Positions 2,509 to 58,661 of a stretch of 64,000 nt of DNA are shown piece after piece. The first letter of the stretch is position 1. Each line of letters begins with the position of its first letter. The translations under genes were made by a program, and so were the position numbers. The DNA lies in contig CAZCBE010000013.1 of assembly GCA_964496695.1 (NCBI GenBank), forward strand, positions 12,401 through 76,400. The letters run 5' to 3'. The notes below the pieces were generated by a model. That model did no database searches and was not told where the DNA came from. It saw only the letters and a list, made by a program, of their open reading frames with translations. The DNA is from an uncultured Klebsiella sp. GTDB taxonomy: Bacteria > Verrucomicrobiota > Verrucomicrobiia > Limisphaerales > SXTU01.

Positions 2509-3276
2509 ATGAAACACATCCTTGCCAGCCTCTGCATCGCCGTCCTGCTCGCGGTGCCCGACGCCCGCGGCCAGAAAGCGGGCGGCGTTTCCGCGATTGG
2601 CACCCAGGCCCCGTTCCTTGCCGCCGCCATGTCGGAATTTTTCAGTGACACCCGGGCGTTCACCGCCGGTGTCGAACTCGCGCTGCCCGCCAAGGATGGG
2701 GCCGAACCGATGAAGCTCCCCTTCGGCGTCGCCATGGCGGATGGTAAAATGCGCTGGGAACTCAACTTCGCCAATGTGAAGAGCGCGGAAATGACCCCCG
2801 AAGCCCTCAACGGCATGAAGGGCATGGGCCTGGACCAGATGTGCTTCATCTATCTGCCCGGCAAACCGCTCACCCTCACGCTCCCCGGCATGAAAGCCTA
2901 TGTCGAGATGCCCGTGCCCAAGGTCGAAGGCGTCCAGCAGCAGGCGCAGGAAAAAATCGGGCGGCTGGAAAAGAAGGAAATTGGCCGCGAGACCATCGCC
3001 GGCCAGCCCACGGTGAAATACGCCGTGAAAGTGCCCGGCGACGACGGCACGGCGACCGTCTGGCAGGCCACGAACCTGCAGAATCTCCCCATCAAGATCC
3101 ACATCACCAAGGATCAGCAGACCTACCAGCTCCAGTTGAGCAACATCCGCCTCGGCCAGCCGGATGCCGCCTACTTCCAGATGCCGCCCGGCTACACGAA
3201 GCAGGCCGACCTCAACGCGGCCATCCAGACGGCCGCGATGCGCTCGTTGGGAGGAATCAGCGGCGGGCTGAAGTAG
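2509..3276 (+). CDS. Secreted protein of unknown function
   Basis: The ORF is open from GTG 2491. The internal ATG at 2509 gives a clean signal peptide, MKHILASLCIAVLLAVPDARGQ. I recognise no catalytic motif. Confidence 0.55.
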   Translation: MKHILASLCIAVLLAVPDARGQKAGGVSAIGTQAPFLAAAMSEFFSDTRAFTAGVELALPAKDGAEPMKLPFGVAMADGKMRWELNFANVKSAEMTPEALNGMKGMGLDQMCFIYLPGKPLTLTLPGMKAYVEMPVPKVEGVQQQAQEKIGRLEKKEIGRETIAGQPTVKYAVKVPGDDGTATVWQATNLQNLPIKIHITKDQQTYQLQLSNIRLGQPDAAYFQMPPGYTKQADLNAAIQTAAMRSLGGISGGLK

Positions 3277-3551: not shown

Positions 3552-4928
3552 ATGCGCATCCGCAATCTCAATCCCGACGCCGACATCGGCGCGAGCGCCT
3601 GGTGGCTCGAAATCGACGGTCACCGCCTGCTCATGGACGCCGGCGTCCACCCCAAGCGCGAAGGCCGCGACGGCCTGCCCATGCTGGACCTGGTCAAGGA
3701 CACCGACCTCGACGCCATCGCCATCACCCACTGCCACCACGACCATGTCGGCGGGCTGCCGGTGGCCGTGCGGCATCACCGGCAGGCGCACGTCCTGATG
3801 ACGGAACTGAGCTACTTCCTCGTCGAGCGCGTGCTCCACAACTCGGTGAACGTGATGAAGCGCCAGCGCGAGGAGGCCGGCATCCGCGACTACCCGCTCT
3901 ACACGCACGAGGAAGTGGATGAGATCGCCCCGCTCTTCCAGGGCTTCAAATACAACCGCCCGGTGGAGTGGGCGTTCCAGAAGACCCGGGGCGCGATCAA
4001 CGGCTCGCCCACGCTGGAATTCTTCGACGCCGGGCATGCGCTGGGCTCCGCCGGCATCCTGGTGCGCGGCAAGCGCGAGACCCTCTTCTACACCGGCGAC
4101 GTCTGCTTCCACGACCAGACCATCCTGAAAGGGGCGCGGTTTGAAGGTGTGAAGGCCGACGTCCTCATCATGGAGACCACGCGCGGCAACCGCGCGATGA
4201 CGCCCGGCTTCACCCGCGAGGCCGAGCTGGCCCGGCTCATCGAGGCCATCCGGGAGACGCTCAAACGCAAGGGCTGCGTGCTCATCCCCACCTTCGCCCT
4301 GGGCCGCAGCCAGGAAATCCTCGCCGCGATCGCCCTCGCCATCCGGGCCGGGAAGCTGAAGCACCAGCCCATCTACATCGGCGGCCTGGGCCGCGTCTTC
4401 ACGGAGATCTACGACCTCGAGTCCCATCGCACCCACCGCCAGCACAGCAGCCTCCAGCTCCACGAGGCGTTGAACCTGGTGGTGCTCGAAAAAGGCCAGG
4501 CCGAATCCATGCGGCTGGCGGGCGGGCGCATCTTTGTCATCACCGCCGGCATGATGAGCGAGCACACCGCCGCACACGACCTCGCCGCGCGCATGATGGG
4601 GGACGCCCGCCACGGCATCTTCTTCGTCGGCTACGCGGACCCCGACACGCCGGGCGGCCACCTCAAGGCCAGCCTGCCGGGCAAGCCGTTCCTCTTCAGC
4701 CCCAGCGCCGGCCAGCTCACCCGGAACTGCGAAATCCGGGATTTCGACCTGTCCGCCCATGCCAACCGCAGCGAACTGCTCGACTTCGTCAGCGAAGTCT
4801 CGCCCCGCACCGTGCTGCTCGGCCACGGCGACGCGGTGGCCCGCGCCTGGTTCGCGGAGCAAATCCAGGCCCGGCATCCCAAAATCAAAGTAATCCAGCC
4901 CGCTCCCGGCCAGCTCAGCGAAGTGTAG
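3552..4928 (+). CDS. MBL-fold metallo-hydrolase, beta-CASP type (RNase J / CPSF-like)
   Basis: HxHxDH motif ITHCHHDHVGGLP, followed by beta-CASP-like downstream motifs (TRGNR..., IPTFALGRSQEIL, HLSAHA-like LSAHANRSEL). The ORF opens at 3294, but family-like sequence begins at MRIRNLNPDADIG (ATG 3552). Confidence 0.8.
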   Translation: MRIRNLNPDADIGASAWWLEIDGHRLLMDAGVHPKREGRDGLPMLDLVKDTDLDAIAITHCHHDHVGGLPVAVRHHRQAHVLMTELSYFLVERVLHNSVNVMKRQREEAGIRDYPLYTHEEVDEIAPLFQGFKYNRPVEWAFQKTRGAINGSPTLEFFDAGHALGSAGILVRGKRETLFYTGDVCFHDQTILKGARFEGVKADVLIMETTRGNRAMTPGFTREAELARLIEAIRETLKRKGCVLIPTFALGRSQEILAAIALAIRAGKLKHQPIYIGGLGRVFTEIYDLESHRTHRQHSSLQLHEALNLVVLEKGQAESMRLAGGRIFVITAGMMSEHTAAHDLAARMMGDARHGIFFVGYADPDTPGGHLKASLPGKPFLFSPSAGQLTRNCEIRDFDLSAHANRSELLDFVSEVSPRTVLLGHGDAVARAWFAEQIQARHPKIKVIQPAPGQLSEV

Positions 4929-5096
4929 GCGGGTGCCTGCACATCTTGGCTCGCTGCCCATGAACCGCCCGGCGCGCACCTTGCCCCGGCGCGAATGGAT
5001 ACGGCCTCGCCGAACCACTGGCGTGCTCGGGTCTCGCCCCGCTCGTGCCTCGCGGGGCGAGGGAGACAGCGGTGCGTCGTGCCTAGGCCAGCGGTG

Positions 5097-5257
5097 GGCG
5101 CATCTCGACACTGCCCCGACAGCCGATGGAGCACGGGTCTGTGACCCGCAGGAACGTTCGAACGTCCGTCCCGCCGGCCTACACGGATGGCATCAGACGA
5201 GGGTGGCCGCTGCGGGTCGCAGACCCGCGCTCCGGGGGCAGTGTCGAGATACGCCCG
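5097..5257. repeat. MITE-like palindromic element, family A, copy 1
   Basis: Arms gggcgcatctcgacactgcccc...gggtctgtgacccgcagg and ccgctgcgggtcgcagacccgcgctccgggggcagtgtcgagatacgccc are reverse complements around a central aacgttcgaacgt. A second copy lies at 54185-54349. Confidence 0.75.
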
Positions 5258-5449
5258 CCAGCGGTCGCGAACTCACTGCGGCTTCGATCTCGTTGCCGGC
5301 CACTGGTCCCGGCACGAAGGGGGGGCAAGGGCTGAAAGCGCGGCAGTTAGGGGGCCGTTGGTTCTCTCCCTAAGGGCGCGGGAGAATCTTCGGCAGCAAC
5401 GTATCCAAGCGAAGCACTTTTGCTAACCGAGGCGGGCTACGTGGCTCCT

Positions 5450-10298: not shown

Positions 10299-10526
10299 CA
10301 ATCCCAAAGGGATTGCGTCCACCAGCCCTGGGTTGCGAGGAACGAGCTACCCTGGGAAGTCGGAGGCGGAATTTCACAACCCCAACGGGGTTGCGGCGAA
10401 TTCGCGAGCGATGACGGAAACGGACTGGCCACAACCCCGTTGGGGTTGATGATGATTGGCGGACGGTGCTCCAGGGTAGCTCGCGCCTCGCAACCCTGGG
10501 CTTTGGGACGGAATCCCGTTGGGATT
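10299..10526. repeat. BIME-like inverted pair of REP units (right of RayT)
   Basis: The forward unit 10299-10395 and the inverted unit about 10430-10526 mirror each other (caaccccaacggggttg / caaccccgttggggttg; aatcccaaagggatt / aatcccgttgggatt). Confidence 0.8.
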
Positions 10527-10697
10527 CTTGAGCCGGAGCAGCGCAACTGGCGAGCATGGTGCGTTCAAGCGAACGGAGAGGATGGCAACTATTCCAAGAC
10601 ACTGAATTTCCGAATCGGTGATTCGGAGATCTCCGCGAAGACGGACACTGGCGATTTCCGAGACACTGTCTCGGAAATTCAATGACGCGCCCGCGAA

Positions 10698-10745
10698 CAA
10701 TCCCAACGGGATTGCGCCCTCCAGCCCAAGGTTGGTGCGCCAGCG
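10698..10745. repeat. Truncated REP unit abutting the VOC pseudogene
   Basis: caatcccaacgggattgcgccctccagcccaaggttgg is near-identical to the unit at 9651. Confidence 0.75.
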
Positions 10746-13090: not shown

Positions 13091-14665
13091 CTACGGGTTG
13101 AAAAGCTTTTCCACCTTCGCCTTCACTGCGGCATCCATTATAATCAGCGGCGGCCAAGGGCGTTTGAAACCCTCACCCGGGATCTTCTTCGTCGCGTCGA
13201 TGCCGAGTTTGCTGCCGCTGGCGATTTCGCTGGTGGCGTGGTCGAGCACGTCGGACGGGCCTTTGGTGAAGATGCTGTCGCGTTGCGGGTCGGTGTTGGC
13301 GCAGAGGCGGAAGAGGACTTCGCTGGTGTTGTGCACGTCCACGTCGTCGTCCACCACGATGATGTATTTGGTGAACATCATCTGGCCCATGCCCCAGAGG
13401 CCGTGCATGATTTTGTAGGCTTGCATCGGGTAGGTCTTGCGGATGCTCACGAAGACGAGGTTGTGGAAGACGCCTTCGGCCGGCAACGCGATATCCACGA
13501 TCTCGGGGAAGTTCATCTTGAAGATGGGCAGGAAGAGTTTCACGGACGCGCCGCCGATGTAGAAGTCCTCCATCGGCGGGATGCCGACGATGGTGGCGGG
13601 ATAGACGGCGTCTTTGCGGTGCGTGATGGCAGTGACGTGGAAGACAGGATACGGCTCGGGCAAGGTGTAATAGCCGGTGTGATCGCCGAACGGGCCTTCG
13701 TCGCGCAGCGGCTCCTTGGGGTCAATGTAGCCCTCGATGACGAAGTCGGAATTCGCCGGCACCTCCAGGTCGTTGGTCTCGCACTTCACCAGCTCCACGG
13801 ACTTCTTGCGCAGGTAGCCCGCGAGCAAGAACTCATCCAGTCCATCCGGCAGCGGCGCGGTGGCGGCGAAGGGATACATGGGATCGCCGCCGAGGAAGAT
13901 CGCGACGGGCATGCGCTCGCCGCGCTCGTAATAACGACGGCCATGGCGCGCGGCCACCTTCTGGAGCTGCCAGTGCATGCCCGTGGTGCGGTCGTCGTAG
14001 ATCTGCACGCGATACATGCCGAGGTTGCGATCGTCCGTGTCGGGATCGCGCGTGACGACGCAGGGCAGCGTGATGAAGCGACCGCCGTCGAGGGGCCAGC
14101 AGTTGAGGATGGGGAGGTTGAGAAGAGTTGAAGGGTTGAAGGGTTGAAGGGTTGAAGGGGGTTCGCTGCCGGCACCCCCTTTAACTTTTGAACCTTTAAA
14201 CTCTTCAACTGACGGCGCGGCCGGCCACGCTTCTGTGCGCGTCGGCGGGGAATCGAACTTATGGATGACTTCCTTGCACGGACCGTCCTTGACCAGCTTG
14301 GGCTTGGCGTGACGGAGGTCAATGGCGAGCGAGAGCAGCTTCATCGCCTCGCGCATCGAGGTGGGCGGCTTGGCCTTCATCAGCGCGCCGAGTTCGGCGG
14401 CGACCTCGTCCACGGAGCCCGCTCCCATGCTCATGGCCATGCGCTTGTGCGAGCCAAGGGTGTTGATGGCGACGGGGAAGGGAGAGACGACGCCATTGAC
14501 GGTGGGCTGCTCGATGAGCAGGGCCTTGCCGCCGCCGGGCTTCTTCATCTCGCGGTCGGCCAGCTCGGTGATTTCCAGTTCGGTGGCCAGGGGCTGGCGG
14601 ATGCGGGTCAGCTCCCCTGCCCTGTCGAGCGCCTGCACCCATTCCCGGAAGGAGTCAAATGCCAT
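13091..14665 (-). CDS. UbiD-family (prenylated-FMN dependent) decarboxylase
   Basis: MAFDSFREWVQALDRAGELTRI..., LPILNCWPLDGGRFITLP, GMYRVQI, EGPFGDHTGYY are UbiD hallmarks. The gene carries an in-frame palindromic insert (see 14124-14210). Confidence 0.85.
   Translation of the reverse strand: MAFDSFREWVQALDRAGELTRIRQPLATELEITELADREMKKPGGGKALLIEQPTVNGVVSPFPVAINTLGSHKRMAMSMGAGSVDEVAAELGALMKAKPPTSMREAMKLLSLAIDLRHAKPKLVKDGPCKEVIHKFDSPPTRTEAWPAAPSVEEFKGSKVKGGAGSEPPSTLQPFNPSTLLNLPILNCWPLDGGRFITLPCVVTRDPDTDDRNLGMYRVQIYDDRTTGMHWQLQKVAARHGRRYYERGERMPVAIFLGGDPMYPFAATAPLPDGLDEFLLAGYLRKKSVELVKCETNDLEVPANSDFVIEGYIDPKEPLRDEGPFGDHTGYYTLPEPYPVFHVTAITHRKDAVYPATIVGIPPMEDFYIGGASVKLFLPIFKMNFPEIVDIALPAEGVFHNLVFVSIRKTYPMQAYKIMHGLWGMGQMMFTKYIIVVDDDVDVHNTSEVLFRLCANTDPQRDSIFTKGPSDVLDHATSEIASGSKLGIDATKKIPGEGFKRPWPPLIIMDAAVKAKVEKLFNP
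14124..14210. repeat. 87-bp palindromic element embedded in frame in the UbiD-family CDS
   Basis: The left arm is agagttgaagggttgaagggttgaagggttgaaggggg and the loop is ttcgctgccggca. The right arm is ccccctttaacttttgaacctttaaactcttcaact. The element encodes VEEFKGSKVKGGAGSEPPSTLQPFNPSTL on the minus strand. Confidence 0.75.
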
Positions 14666-16438: not shown

Positions 16439-16579
16439 GGGCTACGGACTTCGCTGGAGTTGATGCCCCACGCGTTCTGAACCACGGCGGGCCATGGCAT
16501 GGTCAGCGGCCTGACGGCACCATTGAAGCTGCCTCGGCTACCGCCGCCATCGCTTGCCCTCGACGGCGACAAGTCGCCT

Positions 16580-16622
16580 GCGGAAAGCGGTGACAAGTCA
16601 CCGCACTCCAAAACGCCCTGGG
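16580..16622. repeat. Solo copy of the 'caccgcactccaaa' repeat family
   Basis: gcggaaagcggtgacaagtcaccgcactccaaaacgccctggg is related to the inverted pair at 48247-48389. Confidence 0.55.
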
Positions 16623-16720
16623 CCTCCGCCTCACAAAGGCTTGGGTCCCGCATTCGGTGCTTATCCCTCGGAACTCAGTCGGACTTGGGCTTTTCGCCGT
16701 CCTCGGTTAAGGTCAGGCCG

Positions 16721-18496
16721 ATGGCCGACGAACCCAAACCCGCGCCCACGCTGGCGGAGGAATTCCTCGTGGAGTTCCGCGCCTTCTGGGCCTGGCTGCC
16801 GGAGAAGCCGCTGTTCTTCACGCTGCTCGGCGCGTGGGCGGCGCTCTTTCATTTCCTCGGCCACTGCTCGTTCAACTTCACGCAGCAGCCCTCGCTCTTC
16901 GCGTGGATGTGGGGGGCATGGAGCGCACCGGCCCTGGAGGCGGAGCACGGCAAGCTCGTGCCCGTGGTGGTGCTGGTGCTGCTCTGGCTGCGGCACAAGG
17001 AACTGATGGCCACCCCGACCCGGCGCTGGCTGCCCGCGCTGGCCGGGCTGGCTGCAGCGCTCGTCATCCATGTCATCGGGTTCACCGTGCAGCAGCCGCG
17101 CGTCTCCATGGTGGCGCTCGCGGGCGGAGTCTGGTGCCTGGTGGGGCTGGTGTGGGGACCGGGCTGGCTGCGGAAGACGTTTTTCCCATTTCTGCTGCTG
17201 GGCTTTTGCGTGCCCCTTGAGGCACTGGGCGAGGGCGTGTTGTTCCAACTGCGCCTGCTGGTGACCAAAATCTCCGTTGGCATCGGCCACTCCCTGCTGG
17301 GCATGGACGTGGTGCGCGATGGCACGCGCATCTTCAACTCGACCGGAACGTTCAACTACGACGTGGCCCCGGCGTGCAGCGGCATCCGCAGCCTCGCATC
17401 CCTGCTGGCCGTGACGACGATCTATGGCTACGTGACGTTCCGCACGCCGTGGAAGCGCGCCGCGATGATTGCGCTGGCCGCGCCGCTGGCGGTGGCGGGC
17501 AACGTGGCGCGCATCACCACGGTGATCATCCTGGCGGAGGCGTTCGGGCACAAAGCCGGCGCAGCGGCGGAGACGAATCTGGGGTATGTGACCTTCGGCG
17601 TGGCCATCGGGCTGATGTTCCTCGCGGGGTGGCTGCTGCGGGAGAAGACCGCTCCGGCAGGGCGAGACTCTGTCGAGCCCCATTCCGAGCGCCGCGAGGC
17701 GAGCGGAGCGAGCATCTCTGCTTCGGAGGCCGGCCAAGATGCTCGCTTCGCTCGCGCCGACTCCGTCGGCAAATGGGGTTCGACGGAGTCTCACCCTACC
17801 GGGGCGTTGATCGGTGCTCCGCTGATCGCTGCGTTGCTGCTCATGGCGGCTGCGGGCGGTGTGATTTACAAGCTCCAGGCCCGTCAGACACTGGGCCGGG
17901 CCGGCGTGATCGCGGAGCCGCAGGAAGGCTCGCAACGCTGGCGGATTCCCTTGCCTGAGCAGGTGGCTGGCATGACCTCAAAGGAGGTGCCACCAGTCGA
18001 AGAGGAGCTGACCGGCCTGCCCCCGGACACTTCCTTTGGCAAGCGACTCTACACGGCGGCGGACGGCTCGCCGCTCCTGCTGCAGGTCGTGCTCATGGGC
18101 CGTGACCGCACGAGCATCCATCAGCCACAATACTGTCTCACCGGCCAGGGCTGGCTCATCGAGCAGACCGAAGAGGTGCGCCTGCCGGTGGCCAAGCCGC
18201 AGCCCCGCGAGTTGCCCGCGCTCAAGCTCACCGCGAGCAAGGTCATCACGCTTAACAACGGCCAGCGGGTGCCGGTGCGCGCGATCTACGTGTATTGGTT
18301 CGTGGCCGACGGCGCGATCACCGCGCACCGCTCCGAGCGGCTCACCGCAATGGCGAAGGAACTGTTGCGCACCGGCACGCTGCAACGCTGGGCCTACGTG
18401 GCGTGCTTTGCGCAGTGCCTGCCCGGGGATGAGGACAAAACTTTCGCGCGCGTGAAGGAGTTTGTGGCCGAGGCGGTGCCGGAGTTTCAGCCGTGA
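16721..18496 (+). CDS. Exosortase fused to an EpsI-family domain
   Basis: Polytopic N-terminal half with the exosortase Cys motif DVAPACSGIRSL and NVARITTV. The C-terminal half is EpsI-like (SIHQPQYCLTGQGW...AIYVYWFVADG). ATG 16721 (MADEPKP...); the upstream part of the ORF lies over repeats. Confidence 0.8.
   Translation: MADEPKPAPTLAEEFLVEFRAFWAWLPEKPLFFTLLGAWAALFHFLGHCSFNFTQQPSLFAWMWGAWSAPALEAEHGKLVPVVVLVLLWLRHKELMATPTRRWLPALAGLAAALVIHVIGFTVQQPRVSMVALAGGVWCLVGLVWGPGWLRKTFFPFLLLGFCVPLEALGEGVLFQLRLLVTKISVGIGHSLLGMDVVRDGTRIFNSTGTFNYDVAPACSGIRSLASLLAVTTIYGYVTFRTPWKRAAMIALAAPLAVAGNVARITTVIILAEAFGHKAGAAAETNLGYVTFGVAIGLMFLAGWLLREKTAPAGRDSVEPHSERREASGASISASEAGQDARFARADSVGKWGSTESHPTGALIGAPLIAALLLMAAAGGVIYKLQARQTLGRAGVIAEPQEGSQRWRIPLPEQVAGMTSKEVPPVEEELTGLPPDTSFGKRLYTAADGSPLLLQVVLMGRDRTSIHQPQYCLTGQGWLIEQTEEVRLPVAKPQPRELPALKLTASKVITLNNGQRVPVRAIYVYWFVADGAITAHRSERLTAMAKELLRTGTLQRWAYVACFAQCLPGDEDKTFARVKEFVAEAVPEFQP
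17657..17799. repeat. ~143-bp palindromic element embedded in frame at the exosortase/EpsI junction
   Basis: The arm gcagggcgagactctgtcgagccccatt...gcgagcggagcgagcatc has a reverse-complement partner. That partner is gatgctcgcttcgctcgc...aaatggggttcgacggagtctcaccctac. Confidence 0.75.
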
Positions 18497-18746
18497 ACCA
18501 GAAGACGTCGCAGGCGGAGCGCCGGCTTCCCAGCCGGCTTAAGTAGTGGTGAACCCGACGTGCATCACCGTCTAAAGTTTGCGGCAGACCATTCAGTGCC
18601 CATTGCTTGCACCAGGCAGAGTGCAGCCTTTCCTTGTCCCAATGCGATAAGCCGGCTGGAAGCCGGCGCTCCCACTGCTTCGCCCCGGCTGAGGGCGCAG
18701 ACACCGGTTGAACAAGCCCGGCCCGGTCGCGTCTGGTGAAGGAACC

Positions 18747-21700
18747 ATGACACCAACCACCCCTTCACGTTTCAGCCTGCTTGTCCCCGCTGCTGCCGCT
18801 GTTTTGCTGGCCGCGCTGGCGGGTCCGGTGCGCGCGGCAGCGGCCAGCAACGAGGCCGCGCTGGCTCCGGTTTATCGCGGCGCCCAGCCGGTGACCGCGC
18901 AGGCGGATGGCAGTTTCCAGATCGAAGCCGAGGAGTTCGCCGTGAAGTCCGGCGGCGCGACCGGCTGGCGCACCATGAACTGGGGCGAGAATTATTACGC
19001 CGCCTCGCTCGCCAATGCCTTCCTCAGCCGCAAGGGCTGTCTCGGCGCGTCCGAGCAGTGCGCCCGCACCGAAGCGACGGTGGAGATCGAAGTGACGGCG
19101 GCCGGAAAGTATCTCGCACTGGCGCGCTACGAGGCCACGTTCCGTTTTGAGACGCGGTTCCGGCTGCGGGTCGAGCAAGGCGGGCAGGTGAAGCTCGACC
19201 GCGTTTACGGTGCGCGGGAAAACCCGAAAGTCTGGGCCTTCCGCCAAGGCGTGAAGCCCGAAGTCGGCTGGGACTGGGGTCCGGTGGAGAACACGGTGTG
19301 GGAAGGCCACGACGCGTGGGTGGAACTCGCCCCGGGCCGCGCGAAGCTCACGCTGGTCGCCGAGAATCAGCCCGAGCCGGCGGCGCGACGCCATGTGGAT
19401 GTGCTCGTGCTCACCCAGGACGAGGCGGGTGTGAAAGCGCGCATTGCGAAGGAGAATTACCTGCCGCTCGATGGTTTGCTCACGCAGGCGGGCGATGTGT
19501 TCCTCAAGTTCCACAACCTCTCCACCACGCCGGCCACGCTCACCGTGCCCGCCGGTGTCGAGCACTCGCCGTATTGGATTCACCAGCGCGCGTGGAAGCC
19601 GAAGACGCTCACCGCCGAGCCGGGTGCGGTCACGGAGTGGGAGGAAGTCGGCAGCCTGCTGGACTCGCTCAACGACGGTCAATGGCGCTTCAACGCCGCG
19701 TCCAAGACCAAGGGTGCGCCGGTGCATTACCGGCTGGAGTTCGGCGTGAAGAATGCGGCGGGCAAGCTGGAGTCGGTCGCAAAATTCGAGAGCCGCACCA
19801 ACGCGCTGGAAATCGCCTACGATGCCAACACGCGCTACACGCGCCGCGTCCGCACGACCGACACGCTGCTCTATGAGATGCTCGCCCATCTCAAAAAGAC
19901 TCCCGTGCGCGGCAAGCCACCGGAGCGCACGCTGATCTACGGCTACACCTTCGACGAGCGGCCCGGTGACGCCAAATACACCGCCGCGCGCGAGGAGTTC
20001 CTGCGGTTGTTCTCGCTGAACGTGCGGCCCAAGAGCGCCAAGGCCGGGGCGCGCGGCACCACCACCTACATTGACGTGCGAGGGGTCACAACGCCCAAGC
20101 TCGTCGAGCATTTCGAGAAGATGAAGCAGGACGGCCAGAAGCTGGAGGACATCCGCGTGGTGAGCCTGGGCGATGAAATCGGCCTGGGTCGTCCGCCGGC
20201 GAAGAGCGATGAACCGTTCCGTGAATGGGCGCGCGGTCGCGGCCTCAAGCCGGACGAGATCAATCCCGCCGCCGCTGGCGACTGGACCAAGGTGGCCTTC
20301 GACGCCTCCCCTGCCCTGCGTGAGTCGAACCCGCGCCTCTACTACTTCGCGCAGCTCTACGCGTATCACTTCGGCATCCAGCAGTTGAAGGAGCGCACGG
20401 ACATCATCAAGCGCGCGCTGCCCAACGCGGACACCGGCGCGAACTTTTCCCCGCATCACGGCCCGCTGTATCTCGGCGACACGCACCAGTGGATCACCCT
20501 GTTCCGCCAGGGCGGCATGACCATGCCGTGGAGCGAGGACTACATCTTCCAGGTGCCGGTCGGCTCGCAGCAGATGAACAACCTGCTGCTCGACCTGGCG
20601 CGGGCCGCGAACCGCTACGAACCGCGCCGCGAGAGCCATTTCTACGTGATGCCGCACGATCCCGGCAACCGGCCCGAGAGCTGGCGGCGGCTCTTCTACG
20701 GCGCGCTCGGCCACGGCATGACGGTGGTGAACCTCTTCGAGTTCCGGCCCGTGCAGGCGGCCTACACGGAGAACTACGTCAACAGCCCGGACATGTTCGT
20801 GGAGGTGCGCCGGGCCTTCAACGAACTGACCACCTTCGAGGATGTCGTGCAGGATGGCCGCCCGCGCTGGGGCAAGGCCGCGCTGTGGTATTCGCAGGCC
20901 GGGGATGTGTGGCAGAACCACAAATCGCCCTTCGGCCCGAACAAGCGCTCGCTGGCGATTGCCGTGCGCCACCAGCAGACCCCGCTCGACATCGTGGACG
21001 AGGAAGACGCGTTGCGCGGCACACTCGCGGGCTACACGGCGCTCTATCTGACCGACGCGAACGTGAGCCAGGCCGCCTCCCGCACGCTGTCCGAATGGGT
21101 GCAAAAGGGCGGCCAGCTTTTCGCCACGGCGGGCGCGGGCCTGCTCGACGAGTTCAACCAGCCCAATGCCACGCTGCGCCCCCTCTTCGGCGTGCAGCCA
21201 CAGGCCCTGACCATCGCGACGAATCCCGCCGTGAACTTCGAGAAAACGGACCTGCCGTTCGCCGAGACGATGGACGAGGTCACGATGAAGTCCGGCGGGG
21301 CCATCCCGGTCTTCGGAGGACTGGGCAAGTTCACCGCCAGTGGCAGCGACGTGCTGGGGACCTTCAAGGATGGCTCGCCCGCCGTCGTGGCAAAGACGCA
21401 CGGCACGGGCCGCGTGATCTACTGCGGCTTCCTTCCGGCGTTGAGCTACTTCCAGCCCGCGATGCCCAAGCGTCCCGGCGACCGCTCCAGTGCGCCGGAT
21501 GCGCTCGCGCACTTCATCCCGACAAAGTTCCATGCGGGCGCAGGCCAGCTCATCGGCCTGCCGGTTGCGAAGGCCGAGCGGCCCGTGGTCTGCTCGGAAC
21601 CGCTGGTGGAAGCAAATCTCATCGAGTCAAAGACCGCCGCCACCCTCGTGCTGGTGAACTGGACGCCCACGCCGATCAAGGGCCTGAAGATCACGCTCCA

Positions 21701-21824
21701 GACGGCACTGCCGCAGAAGAAGGTCGAGCTGGCCAGCGGCGGCAAGGTCACGTCCAGCAAGCAGGGCGGCCAGACGGTGCTGACGCTGGATCTGGATGTC
21801 GCGGATGCGGTGATTCTGCGCTGA
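18747..21824 (+). CDS. Large secreted protein, putative glycoside hydrolase with GH42-like / beta-galactosidase trimerisation-like C-terminal region
   Basis: Signal peptide MTPTTPSRFSLLVPAAAAVLLAALAGPVRAAAA (ATG 18747; the track ORF opens at TTG 18708). The segment ALYLTDANVSQAASRTLSEWVQKGGQLFATAGAGLLDEFNQP resembles the GH42 middle-domain layout. The functional call is weak. Confidence 0.45.
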   Translation: MTPTTPSRFSLLVPAAAAVLLAALAGPVRAAAASNEAALAPVYRGAQPVTAQADGSFQIEAEEFAVKSGGATGWRTMNWGENYYAASLANAFLSRKGCLGASEQCARTEATVEIEVTAAGKYLALARYEATFRFETRFRLRVEQGGQVKLDRVYGARENPKVWAFRQGVKPEVGWDWGPVENTVWEGHDAWVELAPGRAKLTLVAENQPEPAARRHVDVLVLTQDEAGVKARIAKENYLPLDGLLTQAGDVFLKFHNLSTTPATLTVPAGVEHSPYWIHQRAWKPKTLTAEPGAVTEWEEVGSLLDSLNDGQWRFNAASKTKGAPVHYRLEFGVKNAAGKLESVAKFESRTNALEIAYDANTRYTRRVRTTDTLLYEMLAHLKKTPVRGKPPERTLIYGYTFDERPGDAKYTAAREEFLRLFSLNVRPKSAKAGARGTTTYIDVRGVTTPKLVEHFEKMKQDGQKLEDIRVVSLGDEIGLGRPPAKSDEPFREWARGRGLKPDEINPAAAGDWTKVAFDASPALRESNPRLYYFAQLYAYHFGIQQLKERTDIIKRALPNADTGANFSPHHGPLYLGDTHQWITLFRQGGMTMPWSEDYIFQVPVGSQQMNNLLLDLARAANRYEPRRESHFYVMPHDPGNRPESWRRLFYGALGHGMTVVNLFEFRPVQAAYTENYVNSPDMFVEVRRAFNELTTFEDVVQDGRPRWGKAALWYSQAGDVWQNHKSPFGPNKRSLAIAVRHQQTPLDIVDEEDALRGTLAGYTALYLTDANVSQAASRTLSEWVQKGGQLFATAGAGLLDEFNQPNATLRPLFGVQPQALTIATNPAVNFEKTDLPFAETMDEVTMKSGGAIPVFGGLGKFTASGSDVLGTFKDGSPAVVAKTHGTGRVIYCGFLPALSYFQPAMPKRPGDRSSAPDALAHFIPTKFHAGAGQLIGLPVAKAERPVVCSEPLVEANLIESKTAATLVLVNWTPTPIKGLKITLQTALPQKKVELASGGKVTSSKQGGQTVLTLDLDVADAVILR

Positions 21825-25006: not shown

Positions 25007-26215
25007 TTATTGCTTTCCTTTCCGGGCCTTCCGCCGGGGCTGGTTCAATTCCCGCTCGATGTCCGCAATCGTGGGCAGCGCGCCGCGCAGCTTCCTGGGC
25101 AGCGACTCCACGAGCCGCGTCTGCCACTCGGCCACGCCGATGGGTTTCTTCACGTCGCGCAGCGCATACTCCACCTTCACCCGGTTCTTCGCGTCCCGGC
25201 ACAGCAGCAGGCCGATGGTGGGAGCATCGTCCTTATGCCGCATCTGGTCATCCACGGCAGAGAGGTAGTAGTTCATCTTGCCCACAAATTCCGGCTCGAA
25301 CGCCCGCATCTTCAAATCCACGACTACAAAACAGCGCAGCCGCAATTGGTAGAACAGCAAATCGAGGCGCGAATCATCGCCGCCCACTCCGATGGAAACC
25401 TGCCGCCCCACGAACGCGAACCCCGCGCCCAGTTCCAGCAGCAGCCTCTGCACATTATCCACGAGCAGGCGCTCCAGATCGCGCTCCTGTGCCGCCTCGC
25501 CCAGCGTGAGGAAATCGAACGTGTAAGGGTCCTTCAACACCTCGCGCGCCAGGTCCGACTGCGCGGGCGGCAGCGTGCGATCAAAGTTCGTAATGGCCTT
25601 CCCGCTGCGCTCATGCAGCCGTGACTCGATTTGCACCGTGAGGACCGCGCGGCTCCAGCCGTGCTCCAAAGTTTTGCGGGCATACCAGAGGCGCGTGGCG
25701 GGGTGCTTTACCTTTTCAATGAGCAAAATGTTTGTGCCCCACGGGAGCAACGCCAGCGGCTCCGGAGGCCCGTCCAATCGAGTCGCAGGCGGTGATGCAA
25801 ATTGTGCAACAGGCCGTTGCAGAATTTCCTTCCGAGATTTTGCCACAGCCTGTGGCGCAATTGGCCCAGTCAATTTTGCCACAGCCTGTGGCAAAATGTC
25901 GGTGATGGCATAGGCCTCGGCGAAAGTCCGCATCCGATTCAGATTCCGTGAGGAAAACCCATCCATTGCCGGGAACTCCCTCGCCAGATCTTTCGCCAAC
26001 CGCTCCACCACTCTCGTGCCCCAGCCCTCCGCCTTCTGCGCCCGTAAAATCTCCCGCCCGATGTGCCAGTAGAGCAGGACCAGTTCGCGGTTCACCGACA
26101 TCGCCGCCTTCACCTGTGTCGCTCGAACACGGGCTTTCAAGTCGGCAAGGAACGGGGCGTAGCCGGCAGGCACGAGCTTCATGGCTTGGGCTGGTTTGGG
26201 CTTCACTTTGGGCAT
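25007..26215 (-). CDS. DUF1016 / YhcG-family PD-(D/E)xK nuclease-domain protein
   Basis: C-terminal core FAFVGRQVSIGVGGDDSRLDLLFYQLRLRCFVVVDLKMRAFEPEFVGKMNYY (D...D/ExK layout). The N-terminal helical region includes ...PWGTNILLIEKV. Confidence 0.75.
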   Translation of the reverse strand: MPKVKPKPAQAMKLVPAGYAPFLADLKARVRATQVKAAMSVNRELVLLYWHIGREILRAQKAEGWGTRVVERLAKDLAREFPAMDGFSSRNLNRMRTFAEAYAITDILPQAVAKLTGPIAPQAVAKSRKEILQRPVAQFASPPATRLDGPPEPLALLPWGTNILLIEKVKHPATRLWYARKTLEHGWSRAVLTVQIESRLHERSGKAITNFDRTLPPAQSDLAREVLKDPYTFDFLTLGEAAQERDLERLLVDNVQRLLLELGAGFAFVGRQVSIGVGGDDSRLDLLFYQLRLRCFVVVDLKMRAFEPEFVGKMNYYLSAVDDQMRHKDDAPTIGLLLCRDAKNRVKVEYALRDVKKPIGVAEWQTRLVESLPRKLRGALPTIADIERELNQPRRKARKGKQ

Positions 26216-26243
26216 CGCGGAAAGGTTGGCTGATCCAGCCGCT

Positions 26244-27497
26244 TCAAACGGCCAGATGCTTCTTCACCGCCGCCATCGTCTCGCGCTGGCGCTGCTCCAC
26301 GAAGGCGCGAGCCTTGGCCATCTTGGCCTTCGCAGCGGCGGGGTCCTTGGCCATCGCGAGCACGGCGGGGACGATGCCTTTGTGATCTTCGGCCTTGTCG
26401 AGATCGAAGAGCCATTCACCGAGGCCGATGTCGCGCCACATGAAGCCCTTGCTGGTCTGCTCCTCAAAGCGGCAGACGATGGCCGGGATGCCGTTGCCGA
26501 TGGCCATGATGGGCGAGTGCATCTCACTGCCGAAAATGCCCGCGCTGCGGACGTAGGTGCTGAGCGCCTGATCGGTGAGCCAGTATTTGTCACGCCAGAC
26601 GACGCGCTTCCGCACGTCCTCCGGCAGCTTGTCCCAGAACATCTCCTTGCTCACGGCCACCTGCGTCATGTCCTCGGGGCAGAGCAGCACCTTGAGCGGG
26701 GTCTCGCGCACGACGGCGATGATGGCCTCGCGGAGCGCCTTGTGGTCGTGCTCCTTCATCGCCTCGTTGCGCTCGTGGCGCTTGGCGTCGAAGGCGCGCT
26801 TCTTGTCTGGGATGGTCCAGTAAGGCGTGAAACGCAGGCGGGAGAGGCAGCAGAGAAACTTGCCCTCCTCCAGGCCGTTCGCCTTGAGGAAGGCGGTGGC
26901 CGTCGCATCATCGCGCAAGTCACAGGCAAACGCACCATCCGGACCGAACTCCATGATGGGGCTCTTCACGCCGTCCTTCTTCGCACGCTCCAGCGAGACG
27001 GAATCGCGGAAGTAAACGAACTTCGCGTGGTCGAGGATCTCCTTGTCCGAAGTGCTGGCTCCGCGAGTGATGCCATACACGCCGTAGGGCTTGCCGGTGT
27101 GCTTGGCGAAAGCTGCGACATCCTTCGCCGCCACGAGCGACGGGCCGGAGCCGTGCAGGAGGAAGTCCGCCCACGCGACGGCCTCGCCAAGGTCGGCGTT
27201 CGAGGCCTTGCCGTCCGCGCCGAGGGAGCCTTTGACGATCTTGAGCTTGGGGAAGCGCTTGTGCTCCATCGCCGCGACTTCCTCTGACAGATCGCCGGAG
27301 GCCCACAGGCGCACCTCGGCCTCGGGAATGTGTTTCTCGATGAGCGCCAGCACGCCCGGGGTGTGCGCGATGTCACCGATGTTCACGACCTGCCATGAGG
27401 AGCGCAGGAGGATACGCGGGGCGCGCTTGTCTGCGGCATGCACGGAGGCGGCAACCGTGGCGGCGATGGTGGAGTGGAGGAAGTGGCGGCGGTTCAT
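26244..27497 (-). CDS. Polysaccharide pyruvyl-transferase-fold protein with a twin-arginine signal
   Basis: [24 protein letters not shown] (RRxFL motif), then [31 protein letters not shown], typical of PS_pyruv_trans N-termini. The start ATG overlaps the upstream stop (ATGA). Confidence 0.65.
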
Positions 27498-36450: not shown

Positions 36451-37020
36451 GAATTTGCCGCGAGAGGGCGCAGAGGACACAAAGAGTCGTCATACGAGCT
36501 TGCGGCATGGGCAGTTCGGATTGGCGCGGTATTTGTGCGTGCGCTTCCCCCTCACCCCGGCCCTCTCCCCAGGGGAGAGGGAGCCACGCAGCCCGCGTCG
36601 CTCAATGCTCACGCCTTGTTCCCGCATCACGGTTCGCTGATTCAGCCTGCGGTTGGATTCAAGCCTAATGCCGTTCGATAACCCGCCGCGACTGTCACGC
36701 TCTCCCTCTCCTCGGGGAGAGGGCCGGGGTGAGAATTCCCGGAACCAAAGCTTCGTGCGGTGAACCCCTGAACCCCGTGCCGGTGGCTTGCAGCCACCGC
36801 GTTGCAGGTGGAGCGCTCGAAGCGGGTTCGTGCTGCTGCGGCCCACGGTCGGCGGCTGCAAGCCGCCGGCACGGGTTTATGGTGAGGGGAAAGGGAGCAT
36901 CCAATGATCGCACCGCAGGCTGCCCGAATTTCATCCTCACTTGGGATTACTCTGGAGGTTGCCGCCGGCAGGCCCAGTGTTCCTGCTCTGCGTTCTTTGT
37001 GCCCTCTCGCGGCAAAATTC
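36451..37020. repeat. Composite non-coding repeat block bounded by inverted ~36-bp termini
   Basis: The termini are gaatttgccgcgagagggcgcagaggacacaaagag (36451-36486) and ...ttctttgtgccctctcgcggcaaaattc (36976-37020), in inverted orientation. Inside is an inverted pair ctcaccccggccctctcccc..ggggagaggg (36551-36585 / 36699-36733), plus ggcttgcagccacc and ggctgcaagccgcc hairpins. Confidence 0.7.
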
Positions 37021-38181: not shown

Positions 38182-38340
38182 GAAATTCCAAATCCCAAGC
38201 TTCAAATCCCAAACAAGTTCCAAACCCCAAATTTCAAAGGCTGCTGCCGGAAACGGAACCAAAGCTCCGGGCCGGCTTGGGCTTGGAATTTGGAACTTGG
38301 AGCTTCTTTGAGATTTGGAGTTTGGGATTTGGGGATTTCC
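38182..38340. repeat. Loose palindrome built of ccaaat/atttgg units between the PQQ-propeller gene and purM
   Basis: gaaattccaaatcccaagcttcaaatcccaaac...ccaaatttcaaagg faces ...ggaatttggaacttggag...gatttggagtttgggatttggggatttcc. Confidence 0.6.
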
Positions 38341-39648
38341 TCATGGCCCCGGCTTGCCAATCCGCCACAGGTGCTTATGCGTGCGGATGTAGAGGCTGCC
38401 GTCGCTCACGGCATGGGAGGAGTTGGCCAGGTCACCGTCCAACGCGTTCACCCGCACCAGTTCAAACTTGGGACTGGCCTTGAGCGCAATGGTTTCGCTG
38501 GACTGGTTCAAGCAGAGGATGTGGCCATCCACGAGCACCATGGAGGACCAGGAATCGCCTTTCTTGCCGGTTCCTTTCACGCGCTCCTGCCAGAGGGATT
38601 CGCCGGTCTGGAGGTTCAGGCATTCGGCAATGCCCTCGGTGTTGAGGATGTAGGCGTGACCGCCCGAGATGACGCCGGTGCCGAGCCGGTTCTTGGTGCG
38701 GACCGCCTGCCAGAGACGGTGGGTGGCGGTCACATCGCCGCTGCCGCCGAGCTTCACCGCCAGGCTGGTGCCGAAGAAGCCACCCATGGCCACCACCACG
38801 CCCTCGCCCGCGACGGGCGAGCAATAGACCAACTCGTTCAGGCCGTCGCAGTGCCAGAGCGCGCCACCGGTGCGGGGATCGAACGCGCGGACAAACTGCG
38901 GGAAGGTCTGGATCAATTCGTCCCGCTGCCCCGCGCGCACGATGATCGGTGTCGTGAACGTGCCGACCACTCCGCCGCGTTCGCTGCCCTTGAAGCCATC
39001 GGTGCGGGGACGCGGCTCGAGAGCCGGCTCCTTGAACTCCCAGACGGTCTTGCCGCTGCGCTTGTCGAGGCCAAGGAGCCGGGCATTGGGGCCGGGACCG
39101 AAGTAGAGCACGCACATATCCCCGTGGATCAGGGGCGAGGCGGCGTAGGACCACTCATGCGACTGCGCGCCAAGATCGCGCCGCCACAACTCCTGGCCAT
39201 TCATGTCCCAGCAGAACAGCCCCGCTGAGCCGAAGAAGGCGATGACGCGTTCACCATCGGTCACCGGGGAGGCGGCGCAGTGCGGGTTCTTGCCGTAGCG
39301 CTGTTCGCGTTGGGTCCAGGTGGTGCCTTGCTTCCAGAGCAGCTTGCCGTCGCGGCGGTGGTAGCACATCACGGTGCGGCCACCCTCCTTTTCGAAGGAC
39401 TGGGTAAGGAAGATTTTGTCGCCCCAGACCACGGGCGAGGAATCGCCGGGTTCCGGCAACTCGATCTTCCAAAGCACGTTTTCCGTGGCGCTCCAGTGCA
39501 GCGGGACGCTTTTCTCCGGGGATGAGCCATCGCCGTTCGGGCCGCGCCAGGAAGGCCAGTTCGCGCCCATGAGCGTGGTGGCGAGCGAGAGACAGCCAAG
39601 GCTGGCCACCAAACCGCGCGGGAGCGGAATCGCACGAAGGAACTGCAT
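38341..39648 (-). CDS. PQQ-like / BamB-like beta-propeller repeat protein, secreted
   Basis: Signal MQFLRAIPLPRGLVASLGCLSLATTLMGANWPSWRGPNGDG. Repeated W/G-rich propeller blades (LWK..., LWR..., LWH..., LWQ...). ATG 39648. Confidence 0.75.
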   Translation of the reverse strand: MQFLRAIPLPRGLVASLGCLSLATTLMGANWPSWRGPNGDGSSPEKSVPLHWSATENVLWKIELPEPGDSSPVVWGDKIFLTQSFEKEGGRTVMCYHRRDGKLLWKQGTTWTQREQRYGKNPHCAASPVTDGERVIAFFGSAGLFCWDMNGQELWRRDLGAQSHEWSYAASPLIHGDMCVLYFGPGPNARLLGLDKRSGKTVWEFKEPALEPRPRTDGFKGSERGGVVGTFTTPIIVRAGQRDELIQTFPQFVRAFDPRTGGALWHCDGLNELVYCSPVAGEGVVVAMGGFFGTSLAVKLGGSGDVTATHRLWQAVRTKNRLGTGVISGGHAYILNTEGIAECLNLQTGESLWQERVKGTGKKGDSWSSMVLVDGHILCLNQSSETIALKASPKFELVRVNALDGDLANSSHAVSDGSLYIRTHKHLWRIGKPGP

Positions 39649-39940
39649 GGCCGCAGTGTAAATGCGGATGGCACCGCGCCAAGCGGGATTCGCAGTCCTC
39701 GCGGAGCGCCGGTCTCTGACCCGGCGTTGAGACATCCCGATTCTGAAGTTGAACCACGGATGGACACGGATGAACACGGATCAGAGGCAATGAGCGCGCT
39801 CTGCGCGCGCTCACGGCGCATTCCATCCGTGGTTTTCCAAAGTTTATTCTGGATCGCGCCGGGTCGGAGACCGGCGCTCCGCCCGCACACCCGGTGGCTC
39901 GCTTGCCTTTTGAAAGCGTTTCCCTATCGTCCGCGCACCG

Positions 39941-42739: not shown

Positions 42740-42757
42740 TTCGGGGGGGCAAATGCT

Positions 42758-42845
42758 GGAGCAGGATTAGGATCAGGATTACGAGCAGGAACTGCAACGC
42801 GGGGCATTCTGCTCGTAATCCTGATCCTGATCCTAATCCTGCTCC
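42758..42845 (+). terminator. Long hairpin of aggat(c/t) hexamer repeats just after the glnD stop
   Basis: ggagcaggattaggatcaggattacgagcag (42758-42788) pairs with ctgctcgtaatcctgatcctgatcctaatcctgctcc (42809-42845). The loop is about 20 nt and there is no clear T-tract. Confidence 0.5.
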
Positions 42846-42989
42846 CTCCGTCCAACTCGGCAGGCAGGTGAACCCCATTGATGCCCGGTTTGCCGGTGAA
42901 TTTCACCCCCTCGCCACCGTCCGTTTCTATGACTTCCGCCGAACGCAGCGCTGTTGCCGCGTCAGCGGGGATTCGTGCATTTTGAAGCT

Positions 42990-48143
<5,154 letters not shown>

Positions 48144-48246
48144 GCGCGGTTGTTCCGTCGCAGTTGGGTGGAGCGCGGCTGTGTCGCGGAGACCAGCCGC
48201 AGCAACCCCGCCCTGCCACCAGCGGCCGATCTCCCCCACAGCATCC

Positions 48247-48389
48247 GAAGTCGCGAAAGCGGCTGGAGTGCGGTGTCTTTCAGCACCGCTCTTTCCCGTG
48301 CAAGGTGAGTGGTGAACTTGCAGCCGTTTTGTGCGCCTAACCGAAAGCGGCGGTGAAACACGCCGCACTCCAGACGCTCGCGCGACTTC
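48247..48389. repeat. Inverted pair of the 'caccgcactccag' repeat family
   Basis: gaagtcgcgaaagcggctggagtgcggtgtctttcagcaccgctctttcc is the reverse complement of ccgaaagcggcggtgaaacacgccgcactccagacgctcgcgcgacttc. Confidence 0.7.
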
Positions 48390-48517
48390 CAGCGTCTCGG
48401 GCCGCCGCGAACGAAGAACTCTCCGGAGTGGATGCGCCGGCTACAAGAAACTGGGATGTGCCTCGCAGCAACTTGCAAATGCAGTTCGGCTTGCATGTGC
48501 GGGCCCGAACTTGCGTG

Positions 48518-53045: not shown

Positions 53046-53229
53046 CCCGGAGGGTTTCCAGGTGAATAGCCGTGGGTGAAACCCATGGGGAGCGGTTTGC
53101 TGGCTCGACCCTGAAAGGGTCGAACTCGCTCATCGGCTGGCGTTGCGTTCAACCCCTCCCGGGGTTGTGCCTCTGGACTCGCTCACCGTGGGTTTCACCC
53201 ACGGCTATTCAGGTGACACCCCTCCGGGG
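53046..53229. mobile_element. 184-bp MITE-like element with ~43-bp terminal inverted repeats
   Basis: The left TIR is cccggagggtttccaggtgaatagccgtgggtgaaacccatgg. The right TIR is ccgtgggtttcacccacggctattcaggtgacacccctccgggg. Internal hairpins are gaccctgaaagggtc and caacccctcccggggttg. Confidence 0.75.
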
Positions 53230-54184: not shown

Positions 54185-54349
54185 GGGCGCATCTGGACCC
54201 TGCCCCGGAGCGCGGGTCTGCGACCCGCAACGGCCCGCCCTTGTCCATGGCTCTTCGTGCAGGCCAGCGGGGACGGCCAATTGGACGTTGCTGCGGGTCA
54301 CAGACCCGCGCTCCGTCGGCTTTCGGGGGCAGTGTCAAGATGCGCCCCC
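54185..54349. repeat. MITE-like palindromic element, family A, copy 2
   Basis: gggcgcatctggaccctgccccggagcgcgggtctgcgacccgcaacgg faces gttgctgcgggtcacagacccgcgctccg...gggggcagtgtcaagatgcgcccc. Homologous to 5097-5257. Confidence 0.75.
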
Positions 54350-56741: not shown

Positions 56742-56751
56742 ACTGATTTTT

Positions 56752-58332: not shown

Positions 58333-58661
58333 CCTGCAAGTTGGCCGCTCATAGGAGAGGGAAGAATTGCGGAGGACGCGGATGGCGCGGATAAGGAACT
58401 GCTGGCGCACGCTCGCCATCAGCCCAGCCCTACCCCTGAACCTGCGATGGGTAGGGCGGGCTGTCCTCAGCCCGCCGTCGGCCACCCGGAGGCCACTAGA
58501 CCTCGGCGGCGCGGTGAGGACACCGCGCCCTACCAGCGCTGGTTCCGGGGCCGAAATCACGGTTGTTGGCCGGTCGTGGGAGGCAGCGTGGGCTGCCCAT
58601 CAGGGCTGAAAGCCCGGGGCATTCGGTGCGGAAGCGAATCGCTTTGGCCGGTCAGAGGTTT

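Follow-up and report, generated by a model that had tools for sequence, protein, structure and literature searches.

A candidate REPIN lying in frame in the linker of an exosortase-EpsI fusion gene

Introduction

Why does a long palindrome lie in frame between the two halves of a membrane protein gene, and did it join those halves or arrive after they had been joined? The question is raised by an exosortase-EpsI fusion gene of a Verrucomicrobiota bacterium, in a stretch of 64,000 nucleotides (GenBank assembly GCA_964496695.1, contig CAZCBE010000013.1, positions 12,401 to 76,400 of the forward strand), which we refer to as the window. The initial annotation, made from the sequence alone, had described the palindrome at 17657-17799 as an in-frame linker between the last exosortase transmembrane segment and an EpsI-like domain, and had proposed either insertion into an existing fusion or the bridging of two formerly separate genes. 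With a probability of roughly 85%, we consider the palindrome to be a REPIN, a hairpin-forming doublet of repetitive extragenic palindromic (REP) sequences, linked to REP-associated tyrosine transposases (RAYTs), which inserted into the linker of an existing fusion, is read through, and is carried as a tolerated passenger.

The fusion gene and its palindromic linker

The features of the gene and of the element are as follows (aa, amino acids; ORF, open reading frame; pLDDT, predicted local distance difference test).

16721..18496, plus strand: exosortase-EpsI fusion gene (P0001), 591 aa, from ORF calls, Pfam, NCBIfam and homologues
16892..17638, plus strand: Exosortase_EpsH domain (PF09721, E = 1.3e-41, 143 bits; aa 132-380 of the 665-aa ORF; Pfam)
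end at ~17641, plus strand: last exosortase membrane helix, YVTFGVAIGLMFLAGWLL (AlphaFold helix 282-305 of the 591-aa protein)
17654..17802, plus strand: REPIN-type element, a head-to-head GTAG REP doublet in A orientation, frame 0, read as AGRDSVEPHSERREASGASISASEAGQDARFARADSVGKWGSTESHPT
17657..17682, plus strand: left REP arm, GCAGGGCGAGACTCTGTCGAGCCCCA, a GYAG tag with an imperfect hairpin
17699..17717, plus strand: left half of the inner stem, GCGAGCGGAGCGAGCATCT, from a gapless repeat search
17718..17736, plus strand: central loop, which differs among family copies
17737..17755, plus strand: right half of the inner stem, AGATGCTCGCTTCGCTCGC, from the same gapless search
17774..17799, minus strand: right REP arm, read on that strand as GTAGGGTGAGACTCCGTCGAACCCCA
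17801..17869, plus strand: membrane helix GALIGAPLIAALLLMAAAGGVIY, anchor of the EpsI part (AlphaFold helix 365-387)
17900..18490, plus strand: EpsI/DUF3485 domain (PF11984, E = 2.5e-13; TIGR02914; aa 468-664; pLDDT 75-93)

The ORF at 16499-18496 runs without interruption for 665 aa. Its true start is likely the ATG at 16721 (MADEPKP), where all homologues begin, giving a predicted protein of 591 aa. The 74 open codons 5' of that start (16499-16720) encode a duplicated GDKSP motif (DGDKSPAESGDKSPHSK); this stretch looks like another repeat, placed in frame by the mechanical ORF call alone.

An exosortase/archaeosortase signature and an EpsI/DUF3485 domain are combined in one predicted polypeptide, and the Pfam placement of the domains was matched by NCBIfam. 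PF11984 scored 50.6 bits (cut-off 26.1), TIGR02602 120 bits (cut-off 105.6) and TIGR04178 68.9 bits (cut-off 23), whereas TIGR02914, at 25.9 bits, stayed under its cut-off of 42.8. Only the general NCBIfam models 8TM_EpsH and exo_archaeo were passed, and no named exosortase subtype reached its curated cut-off (XrtA, 132 versus 208 bits; XrtW, 104 versus 425). The architecture is that of known fused exosortase/EpsI proteins (TIGR02914, 'exosortase C-terminal domain/associated protein EpsI'; XrtW, XrtD and others), with which the gene shares the order of exosortase membrane domain, membrane helix and EpsI/DUF3485 domain.

The palindrome at 17657-17799 is present exactly as first described, with the quoted arms and translation, and extends 3 nt further on each side (CCG...CGG), to 17654-17802. 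It occupies aa 387-434 of the 665-aa ORF, in frame, following the last exosortase membrane helix and preceding helix GALIGAPLIAALLLMAAAGGVIY and the EpsI domain; the proposed in-frame linker holds, the element making up most of the stretch between the two domains. On the plus strand, 17640-17815 folds into one long hairpin of -120.4 kcal/mol with ~55 paired positions per arm, against -78.9 +/- 4.5 kcal/mol for 200 dinucleotide shuffles, none of which folded as well (z = -9.3); the minus strand gave -115.9 kcal/mol (z = -9.8). A gapless inverted-repeat search detected only the inner 19-nt arms (17699-17717 and 17737-17755, 95% complementary), because the arms differ by small indels. The two window arms read GCAGGGCGAGAC-TCT-GTCGAGCCC and GTAGGGTGAGAC-TCC-GTCGAACCC, each an outer tag followed by an imperfect palindrome, as in GTAG REPs. 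No further family copy was found in the window beyond these two arms when 3 mismatches were allowed. Rfam held no matching family for the element; its sub-threshold matches to miRNA precursors, far under the gathering scores, are generic hairpin noise.

Reliability of the assembled sequence

Of the gene's sampled words, 99% are found in four independent bioreactor metagenome runs, whose Logan contigs cover 16721-18496 with 0 mismatches and 0 gaps. We considered whether a dispersed repeat had made the assembler join two unrelated contigs into a chimeric ORF. The assembly graph does branch at the arms, where Logan unitigs end and word depth rises to 600-1400 versus 7-15 in the flanks (40-90 times the flank depth in the source metagenomes), and both the breaks and the depth would be expected of a dispersed repeat. 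However, in all four runs the copy-specific loop lies on a 109-nt unitig (17662-17770) whose depth resembles that of the flanks and which overlaps the contig of the left flank, five other assemblies from other samples have the element with site and frame unchanged, and element-free orthologues show the identical two-domain architecture, leaving an assembly artefact barely conceivable. From the intact frame across independent assemblies, we infer that element and host are translated as one product.

The fusion and the element in orthologous genes

The best 120 homologues, at 70-85% identity, come from metagenome-assembled genomes (MAGs) labelled Verrucomicrobiota, Limisphaerales or Pedosphaera. 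All 120 combine PF09721 and PF11984 in one protein. Their typical linker is ~20 aa long and lacks the GRDSVEP element: 73 have a short LGRAERPVGQPT-type linker (563 aa in total), 15 a GRADLPVGLPDAQQRVPT-type linker, and 24 other short, P/A-rich linkers. The full GRDSVEP...WGSTESHPT insert is confined, among these homologues, to P0001-P0005, P0009 and P0097, with a partial copy in P0102.

Of the two origins originally proposed, insertion into an existing fusion is supported and bridging is not. The bridging account holds that the element lay between separate exosortase and epsI genes and that read-through of an open frame joined them. It draws on the position of the element exactly at the domain junction, on the fact that three frames are commonly open in the family, and on other lineages having other GTAG REP sequences as that linker. 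Nevertheless, the fusion is universal among the 120 listed homologues, including the most divergent (70-77% identity), whose P/A-rich linkers bear no REP signature. Curated exosortase families of 450-520 aa (XrtW, XrtD, XrtO, XrtN, XrtT, XrtJ) either match both halves or have a described EpsI domain at the C-terminus, and a parallel pseudouridine synthase-methyltransferase protein is likewise fused in 120/120 homologues, most of them without the element. We therefore regard a fusion made by the element as most unlikely. Since all listed homologues are fused and most lack the element, the fusion predates it, and the comparison supports entry of the element into a pre-existing fusion rather than the joining of two genes.

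Other REP sequences occupy the same linker. In L002, one of the related loci, the linker is a GTAG-tagged hairpin (GTAGGGCCGAGCGGCCGGTCGGCC), and in L004 it consists of GCAGGGCCGACCTGCCGGTCGGCC followed by the inverted GCAGGGCCGCGCTGCTGCGC, a GTAG REP pair other than that of the window, members of which were also seen outside exosortase genes (L009, L088, L001). Since short linkers of other orthologues are built from GTAG hairpins, the exosortase-EpsI linker is a place where REP sequences repeatedly land or are tolerated. In the DNA of five element-bearing orthologues, from the five other assemblies, the element lies at the identical site and frame; the orthologous copies all fold strongly (-115 to -144 kcal/mol), with arms much more conserved than the loop.

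The repeat family and its link to RAYT genes

A scan for the arm motif in one genome per GTDB species gave at least 100 stretches; among the matches listed, all lie in Limisphaerales-type MAGs, several of which hold 10-18 or more stretches each, so that the family is present in many dispersed copies. In ~0.84 Mb of related DNA, we counted 86 pairs of arms (modal GTAG-to-CTAC length, 146 bp), 52 single arms and minimal doublets of 64-75 bp. An inverted two-unit hairpin repeated as a doublet, with singlets as well, is what a REPIN family would show. Each arm consists of a GTAG tag and its own imperfect hairpin (GGGCGAGAC-TCC-GTCGAGCCC), the tag having T at position 2 in 61/71 copies and A at position 3 in 64/71. 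The flanks are conserved (CYG-GTAGGG...CCCTAC-CRG), CYG and CRG being mutual reverse complements with no direct duplication. Alignment of 57 copies revealed conserved arms and inner stem around a hypervariable loop of ~22 nt, and in 5 copies the outer tags co-vary, GTGG being paired with CCAC instead of GTAG with CTAC.

Using E. coli rayT as a tblastn probe against the related loci, we found RAYT-like ORFs directly adjoining family copies in L093, L056, L012, L010, L105 and L078. The L093 ORF (3146-3664) is bracketed within ~8 nt by copies at 2992-3139 and 3672-3819; it matches NF047646 (REP_Tyr_transpos) with E = 5.9e-20 over profile positions 13-145 of 146, and PDB 4ER8, a solved TnpArep structure, with E = 4.5e-9. 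Pfam Y1_Tnp gave nothing, or E = 0.007, on the RAYT candidates, NCBIfam and PDB being more sensitive. A RAYT ORF flanked by copies of its own family is the signature of a REPIN-RAYT system. The element thus appears, from its sequence and genomic setting, to be of REPIN type, belonging to a RAYT-associated family of ~146 bp in Limisphaerales/Pedosphaera-type Verrucomicrobiota. The initial annotation had missed this identity, and also that REPs of this sort have been described within Verrucomicrobia genes before (PMC3733652). The extragenic location implied by the name REP does not apply, as the window copy and 20 others lie inside Pfam-supported genes. Intragenic REPs are, however, already documented (PMC3733652), and an intragenic site therefore does not exclude membership.

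A classical miniature inverted-repeat transposable element (MITE), with terminal inverted repeats, a target-site duplication and a DDE transposase rather than dependence on a RAYT, would be similar in size and in its long inverted arms, and transposition was not observed here. Against a MITE, every arm is a GTAG tag with its own imperfect hairpin, single arms and short doublets exist, the conserved CYG/CRG flanks are reverse complements rather than a direct repeat, and RAYT genes adjoin copies in six loci. No matching insertion sequence was seen, and the duplication test is incomplete without empty sites. We consider a MITE very unlikely and retain the REPIN assignment.

MAGs labelled 'Klebsiella pneumoniae', 'uncultured Klebsiella sp.' and 'Proteobacteria bacterium' also carry this Limisphaerales-type repeat family, namely L016-L018, L020, L024, L025, L030 and others (CAZOCL01, CALQJI02) and L007, L011 and L015 (RFSE01). 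RFSE01 also encodes the exosortase orthologue P0097. The taxonomic labels of those MAGs look wrong.

Copies within other genes

The initial annotation had suggested that palindromic repeats in this genome are repeatedly read through as protein, and this was borne out by a UbiD gene (14122-14210), a YhcG/DUF1016 gene (25832-25902) and, for the present family in related genomes, 21 copies in Pfam-supported genes, including six exosortase orthologues. Among 83 non-nested copies, 29 are spanned by an ORF that reaches at least 100 codons on both sides, 23 of these in orientation and frame A0 (A orientation, frame 0). In the Pfam-supported set, A0, which yields VGRDSVEP...WGSTESHPT, is used in 21/21 copies. 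Open frames as such are not restricted to A0, being found among 57 copies in 36 for A0, 37 for A2 and 48 for B2. The A0 peptide has a net charge of -2 and a grand average of hydropathy (GRAVY) of -0.67, and the A2 peptide a net charge of +10 with 13 Arg/Lys residues. The GTAG-to-CTAC length is 2 mod 3 in 20/21 Pfam-supported intragenic copies versus 23/62 remaining copies. A bias of this kind in frame and length is to be expected if insertions into genes are filtered by selection, and the filter is clear.

Three of the hosts are DNA repair proteins: UvrB (L075, 2696-5032) and Mfd/TRCF (L083, 1-3045) with one copy each, and AddB (L070, 4535-7999) with three. The others are a glycogen debranching enzyme (L040), a ferredoxin/DmsC-type protein in two genomes (L037, L097), a PAP2-PMT_2 membrane protein with two copies (L015), a PUA-methyltransferase (L084), an aldo-keto reductase (L048), a pseudouridine synthase-methyltransferase (L104), and proteins with a BatD domain (L019) or a YfhO domain (L071). 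Relative to the solved B. caldotenax UvrB, the insert sits at a domain boundary, between residues 403 and 405; in the alignment, it amounts to ~60 aa including lineage-specific flanks. In L104 (1029-2801, minus strand), the REPIN lies in the linker of a pseudouridine synthase-S-adenosylmethionine (SAM) methyltransferase fusion that is widespread in Verrucomicrobiota. The linkers of its homologues (P0121-P0240) range from ~20 to ~90 aa, most being ~20 aa, with at least 4 types of repeat-derived peptide according to lineage; some are hybrids that combine this REPIN's left arm with another repeat on the right. REPIN placements appear to favour junctions between domains, the L104 pattern being the same as the exosortase pattern.

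Several candidates were rejected. The idea that the REPIN had made the L104 fusion did not hold, as 120/120 homologues are fused, most without the element. Spanning ORFs in A2 or B2 (L020, L049, L098) have no Pfam match and are probably spurious high-GC ORFs. The copy in L052 lies 5' of the first PurH domain, probably outside the gene.

Proposed mechanism

We propose that a RAYT copies the REPIN, presumably as a single-strand hairpin, and that a gene already encoding exosortase-EpsI received one copy within its short and variable linker. In orientation and frame A0, which has no stop codons here, the copy would be read through, the frame being kept because a GTAG-to-CTAC length of 2 mod 3 makes the net insertion a whole number of codons. 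Read-through would add ~48 hydrophilic, near-neutral and probably disordered residues. Consistent with a disordered loop, residues 311-362 of the AlphaFold model, which contain the insert, have a pLDDT below 50 and almost no regular structure between helices 282-305 and 365-387, and R/K residues after the last exosortase helix suggest that the insert faces the cytoplasm. Copies that disrupt the frame or give rise to a harmful peptide would be removed by selection, and this would account for the single frame shared by intragenic copies. We think it most likely that the element is tolerated as a passenger and is not a functional module.

A functional intragenic regulator would instead act in the mRNA, as an RNase III/E site or a ribosome pause that uncouples the two halves, or would have a role in the DNA, and would be kept for that function. 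Its attractions are a very stable hairpin on both strands, arms far better conserved than the loop among orthologues, all of whose copies fold strongly, and terminal pairs that covary in 5 copies (GTAG to GTGG with CTAC to CCAC). However, the same conserved arms and variable loop recur in all 57 aligned copies, whether intergenic or in UvrB, Mfd, AddB and other genes; most orthologues lack the element and Rfam has no matching family; and arm co-variation is also expected when a doublet is copied as one unit. We consider such a regulator improbable.

Several results weigh against the tolerated-passenger account or some part of it. The L093 ORF scores 71.6 bits against NF047646, below the curated cut-off of 80, and the 64-kb window contains no RAYT gene, so that the transposase link rests on related genomes. 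The AlphaFold model, built from a 42-sequence alignment, is weak (mean pLDDT 58.8, predicted template modelling score 0.46) and serves for the local linker picture only. A search for RNA runs holding the gene found none. Empty sites clean enough to define the inserted unit or a target duplication were not recovered. In a neighbour-joining tree of the orthologues, internal branches are very short and element-bearing proteins are scattered. The window copy (with P0003, judged from its peptide) has the CCCCATT/EPHS variant and five other orthologous copies CCGTCGA/EPSNER. Finally, the arms are ~85-90% like the family consensus in orthologues whose proteins are ~80-85% identical, and such conservation is not obviously predicted by pure neutrality of the DNA.

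As to the history at the exosortase site, the well-supported pair P0097/P0107 in the same tree has the element in one member and not in the other, each sequence variant also occurs elsewhere in the family, and in a nearest-neighbour ranking all element copies stay near the consensus. A single gain followed by losses, repeated gains, and conversion are all possible histories.

More speculatively, the family may have adapted to intragenic life, combining a frame-keeping modal length with a benign, disordered, near-neutral peptide and colonising interdomain linkers and surface loops of essential proteins (UvrB, Mfd, AddB, exosortase-EpsI), where copies would be sheltered from deletion and the linkers of multidomain proteins built or rebuilt by successive REP insertions. 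We put this forward as a doubtful extension. In a stronger version, the conserved intragenic hairpins may also tune the expression of their host genes.

Relation to known systems

GTAG REP families linked to RAYTs have been described across bacteria, the Planctomycetes-Verrucomicrobia-Chlamydiae (PVC) group included, often as head-to-head dimers that form larger hairpins (Di Nocera, De Gregorio and Rocco 2013, BMC Genomics 14:522; PMC3733652). In-frame REPs are noted there in known proteins, many of them encoded by DNA repair genes (uvrA, uvrB, recBCD), where they are thought to occupy flexible linkers or loops, and intragenic REPs are most numerous in the verrucomicrobium Opitutus terrae. The present family likewise occurs in the repair genes for UvrB, Mfd and AddB, whereas it is a different sequence family from a different order (Limisphaerales-type), with a unit of ~146 bp, or ~48-50 aa, versus the 20-30 aa typical of the dimers described there.

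In REPIN-RAYT systems, REPINs are treated as extragenic (Bertels and Rainey; PMC5581495, bioRxiv 10.1101/2022.05.22.493013). The present family shares with them the REP-doublet hairpin, the many copies, a RAYT flanked by its own family and the co-variation of arms, and differs in that about a quarter of the sampled copies (21/83) lie in Pfam-supported genes, in one fixed frame. The Rickettsia palindromic element (RPE) RPE-1 and its relatives, reportedly described by Ogata et al. in 2000, are the classic case of palindromes inserted in frame; they are ~100-150 bp long, lie in many unrelated genes, and reportedly add ~45-50 residues where the fold of the protein allows it. We know of no dedicated transposase for RPE-1, whereas the present family is linked to RAYT genes. 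RPEs belong to a different host phylum and are probably unrelated to it in sequence, the likeness being one of behaviour only. RPE-4 and RPE-6 are equated in PMC3733652 with REPs of CGTC rather than GTAG type.

Intragenic GTAG REPs in Verrucomicrobia, with an enrichment in repair genes (2013), and, earlier, Rickettsia RPEs are thus already known; what is new is this family and this host gene. The exosortase-EpsI host is, to our knowledge, not listed in the 2013 study of GTAG REPs. The present family is somewhat unusual in its long unit (~48-50 aa), in its high share of intragenic copies and in keeping strictly to one frame.

For annotation, VGRDSVEP...WGSTESHPT peptides in Verrucomicrobiota proteins are best regarded as REPIN insertions and not as new domains, and the hairpin is no sign of misassembly. 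In this family, selection on a mobile element within genes can be read directly, and the copies supply natural insertion-tolerance maps for UvrB, Mfd, AddB and exosortase-EpsI. The junction between exosortase and EpsI anchor tolerates ~20 to 80 unrelated residues, suggesting that tethering suffices. These results leave current concepts unchanged.

Other repeats and genes in the window

The UbiD palindrome at 14122-14210, in the ORF at 13091-14665 (minus strand), consists of GTTGAAGG-type tandem units and belongs to a different, non-GTAG family; within this unbroken ORF of 524 aa it is in frame, following UbiD_N (aa 10-88) and preceding the UbiD domain (aa 179-362). In the ORF at 25007-26263 (minus strand), a 71-bp palindrome at 25832-25902 (CCGAGATTTTGCCACAGCCTGTGGCGCAATTG / CAATTTTGCCACAGCCTGTGGCAAAATGTCGG) lies in frame in the DUF1016_N domain of a YhcG-like nuclease, the domain taking up 178 aa for a profile of 137 positions. 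A head-to-head GTAG REP heterodimer (GTAGGGCGGGCTGTCCTCAGCCCGCC and GTAGGGCGCGGTGTCCTCACCGCGCC) at 58450-58534 is intergenic, with a thioredoxin-like ORF (56608-58332) on one side and a TatC ORF (58774-60411) on the other; more than one REP family is therefore present in the genome, which has several.

Altogether, the 64 kb contain 37 long inverted-repeat pairs, mostly outside long ORFs. Inverted repeats of other families lie at 10300-10734, 53046-53228, 38188-38332, 5093-5259, 54185-54347 and 36551-36878; two of them, at 5093-5259 and 54185-54347, share GGGCGCATCT.GAC.CTGCCCC arms and look like copies of a single family. Two very long ORFs, at 39251-42766 and 42927-48440 (both minus strand), encode putative proteins of ~1170 and 1836 aa; Pfam gave no match for either, and each is opposed by a long ORF on the other strand. 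Palindromes at 39701-39882 and 48247-48389 lie within or beside these two ORFs.

The exosortase gene is followed on its 3' side, in the window as in L007 and L008, by a gene for a ~1030-aa protein (18708-21824, plus strand, in the window) with a faint Glyco_hydro_42M match. Synteny differs between relatives, with a convergent GTP_EFTU (CysN-like) gene directly 3' of the exosortase gene in L001, L002, L003 and L005.

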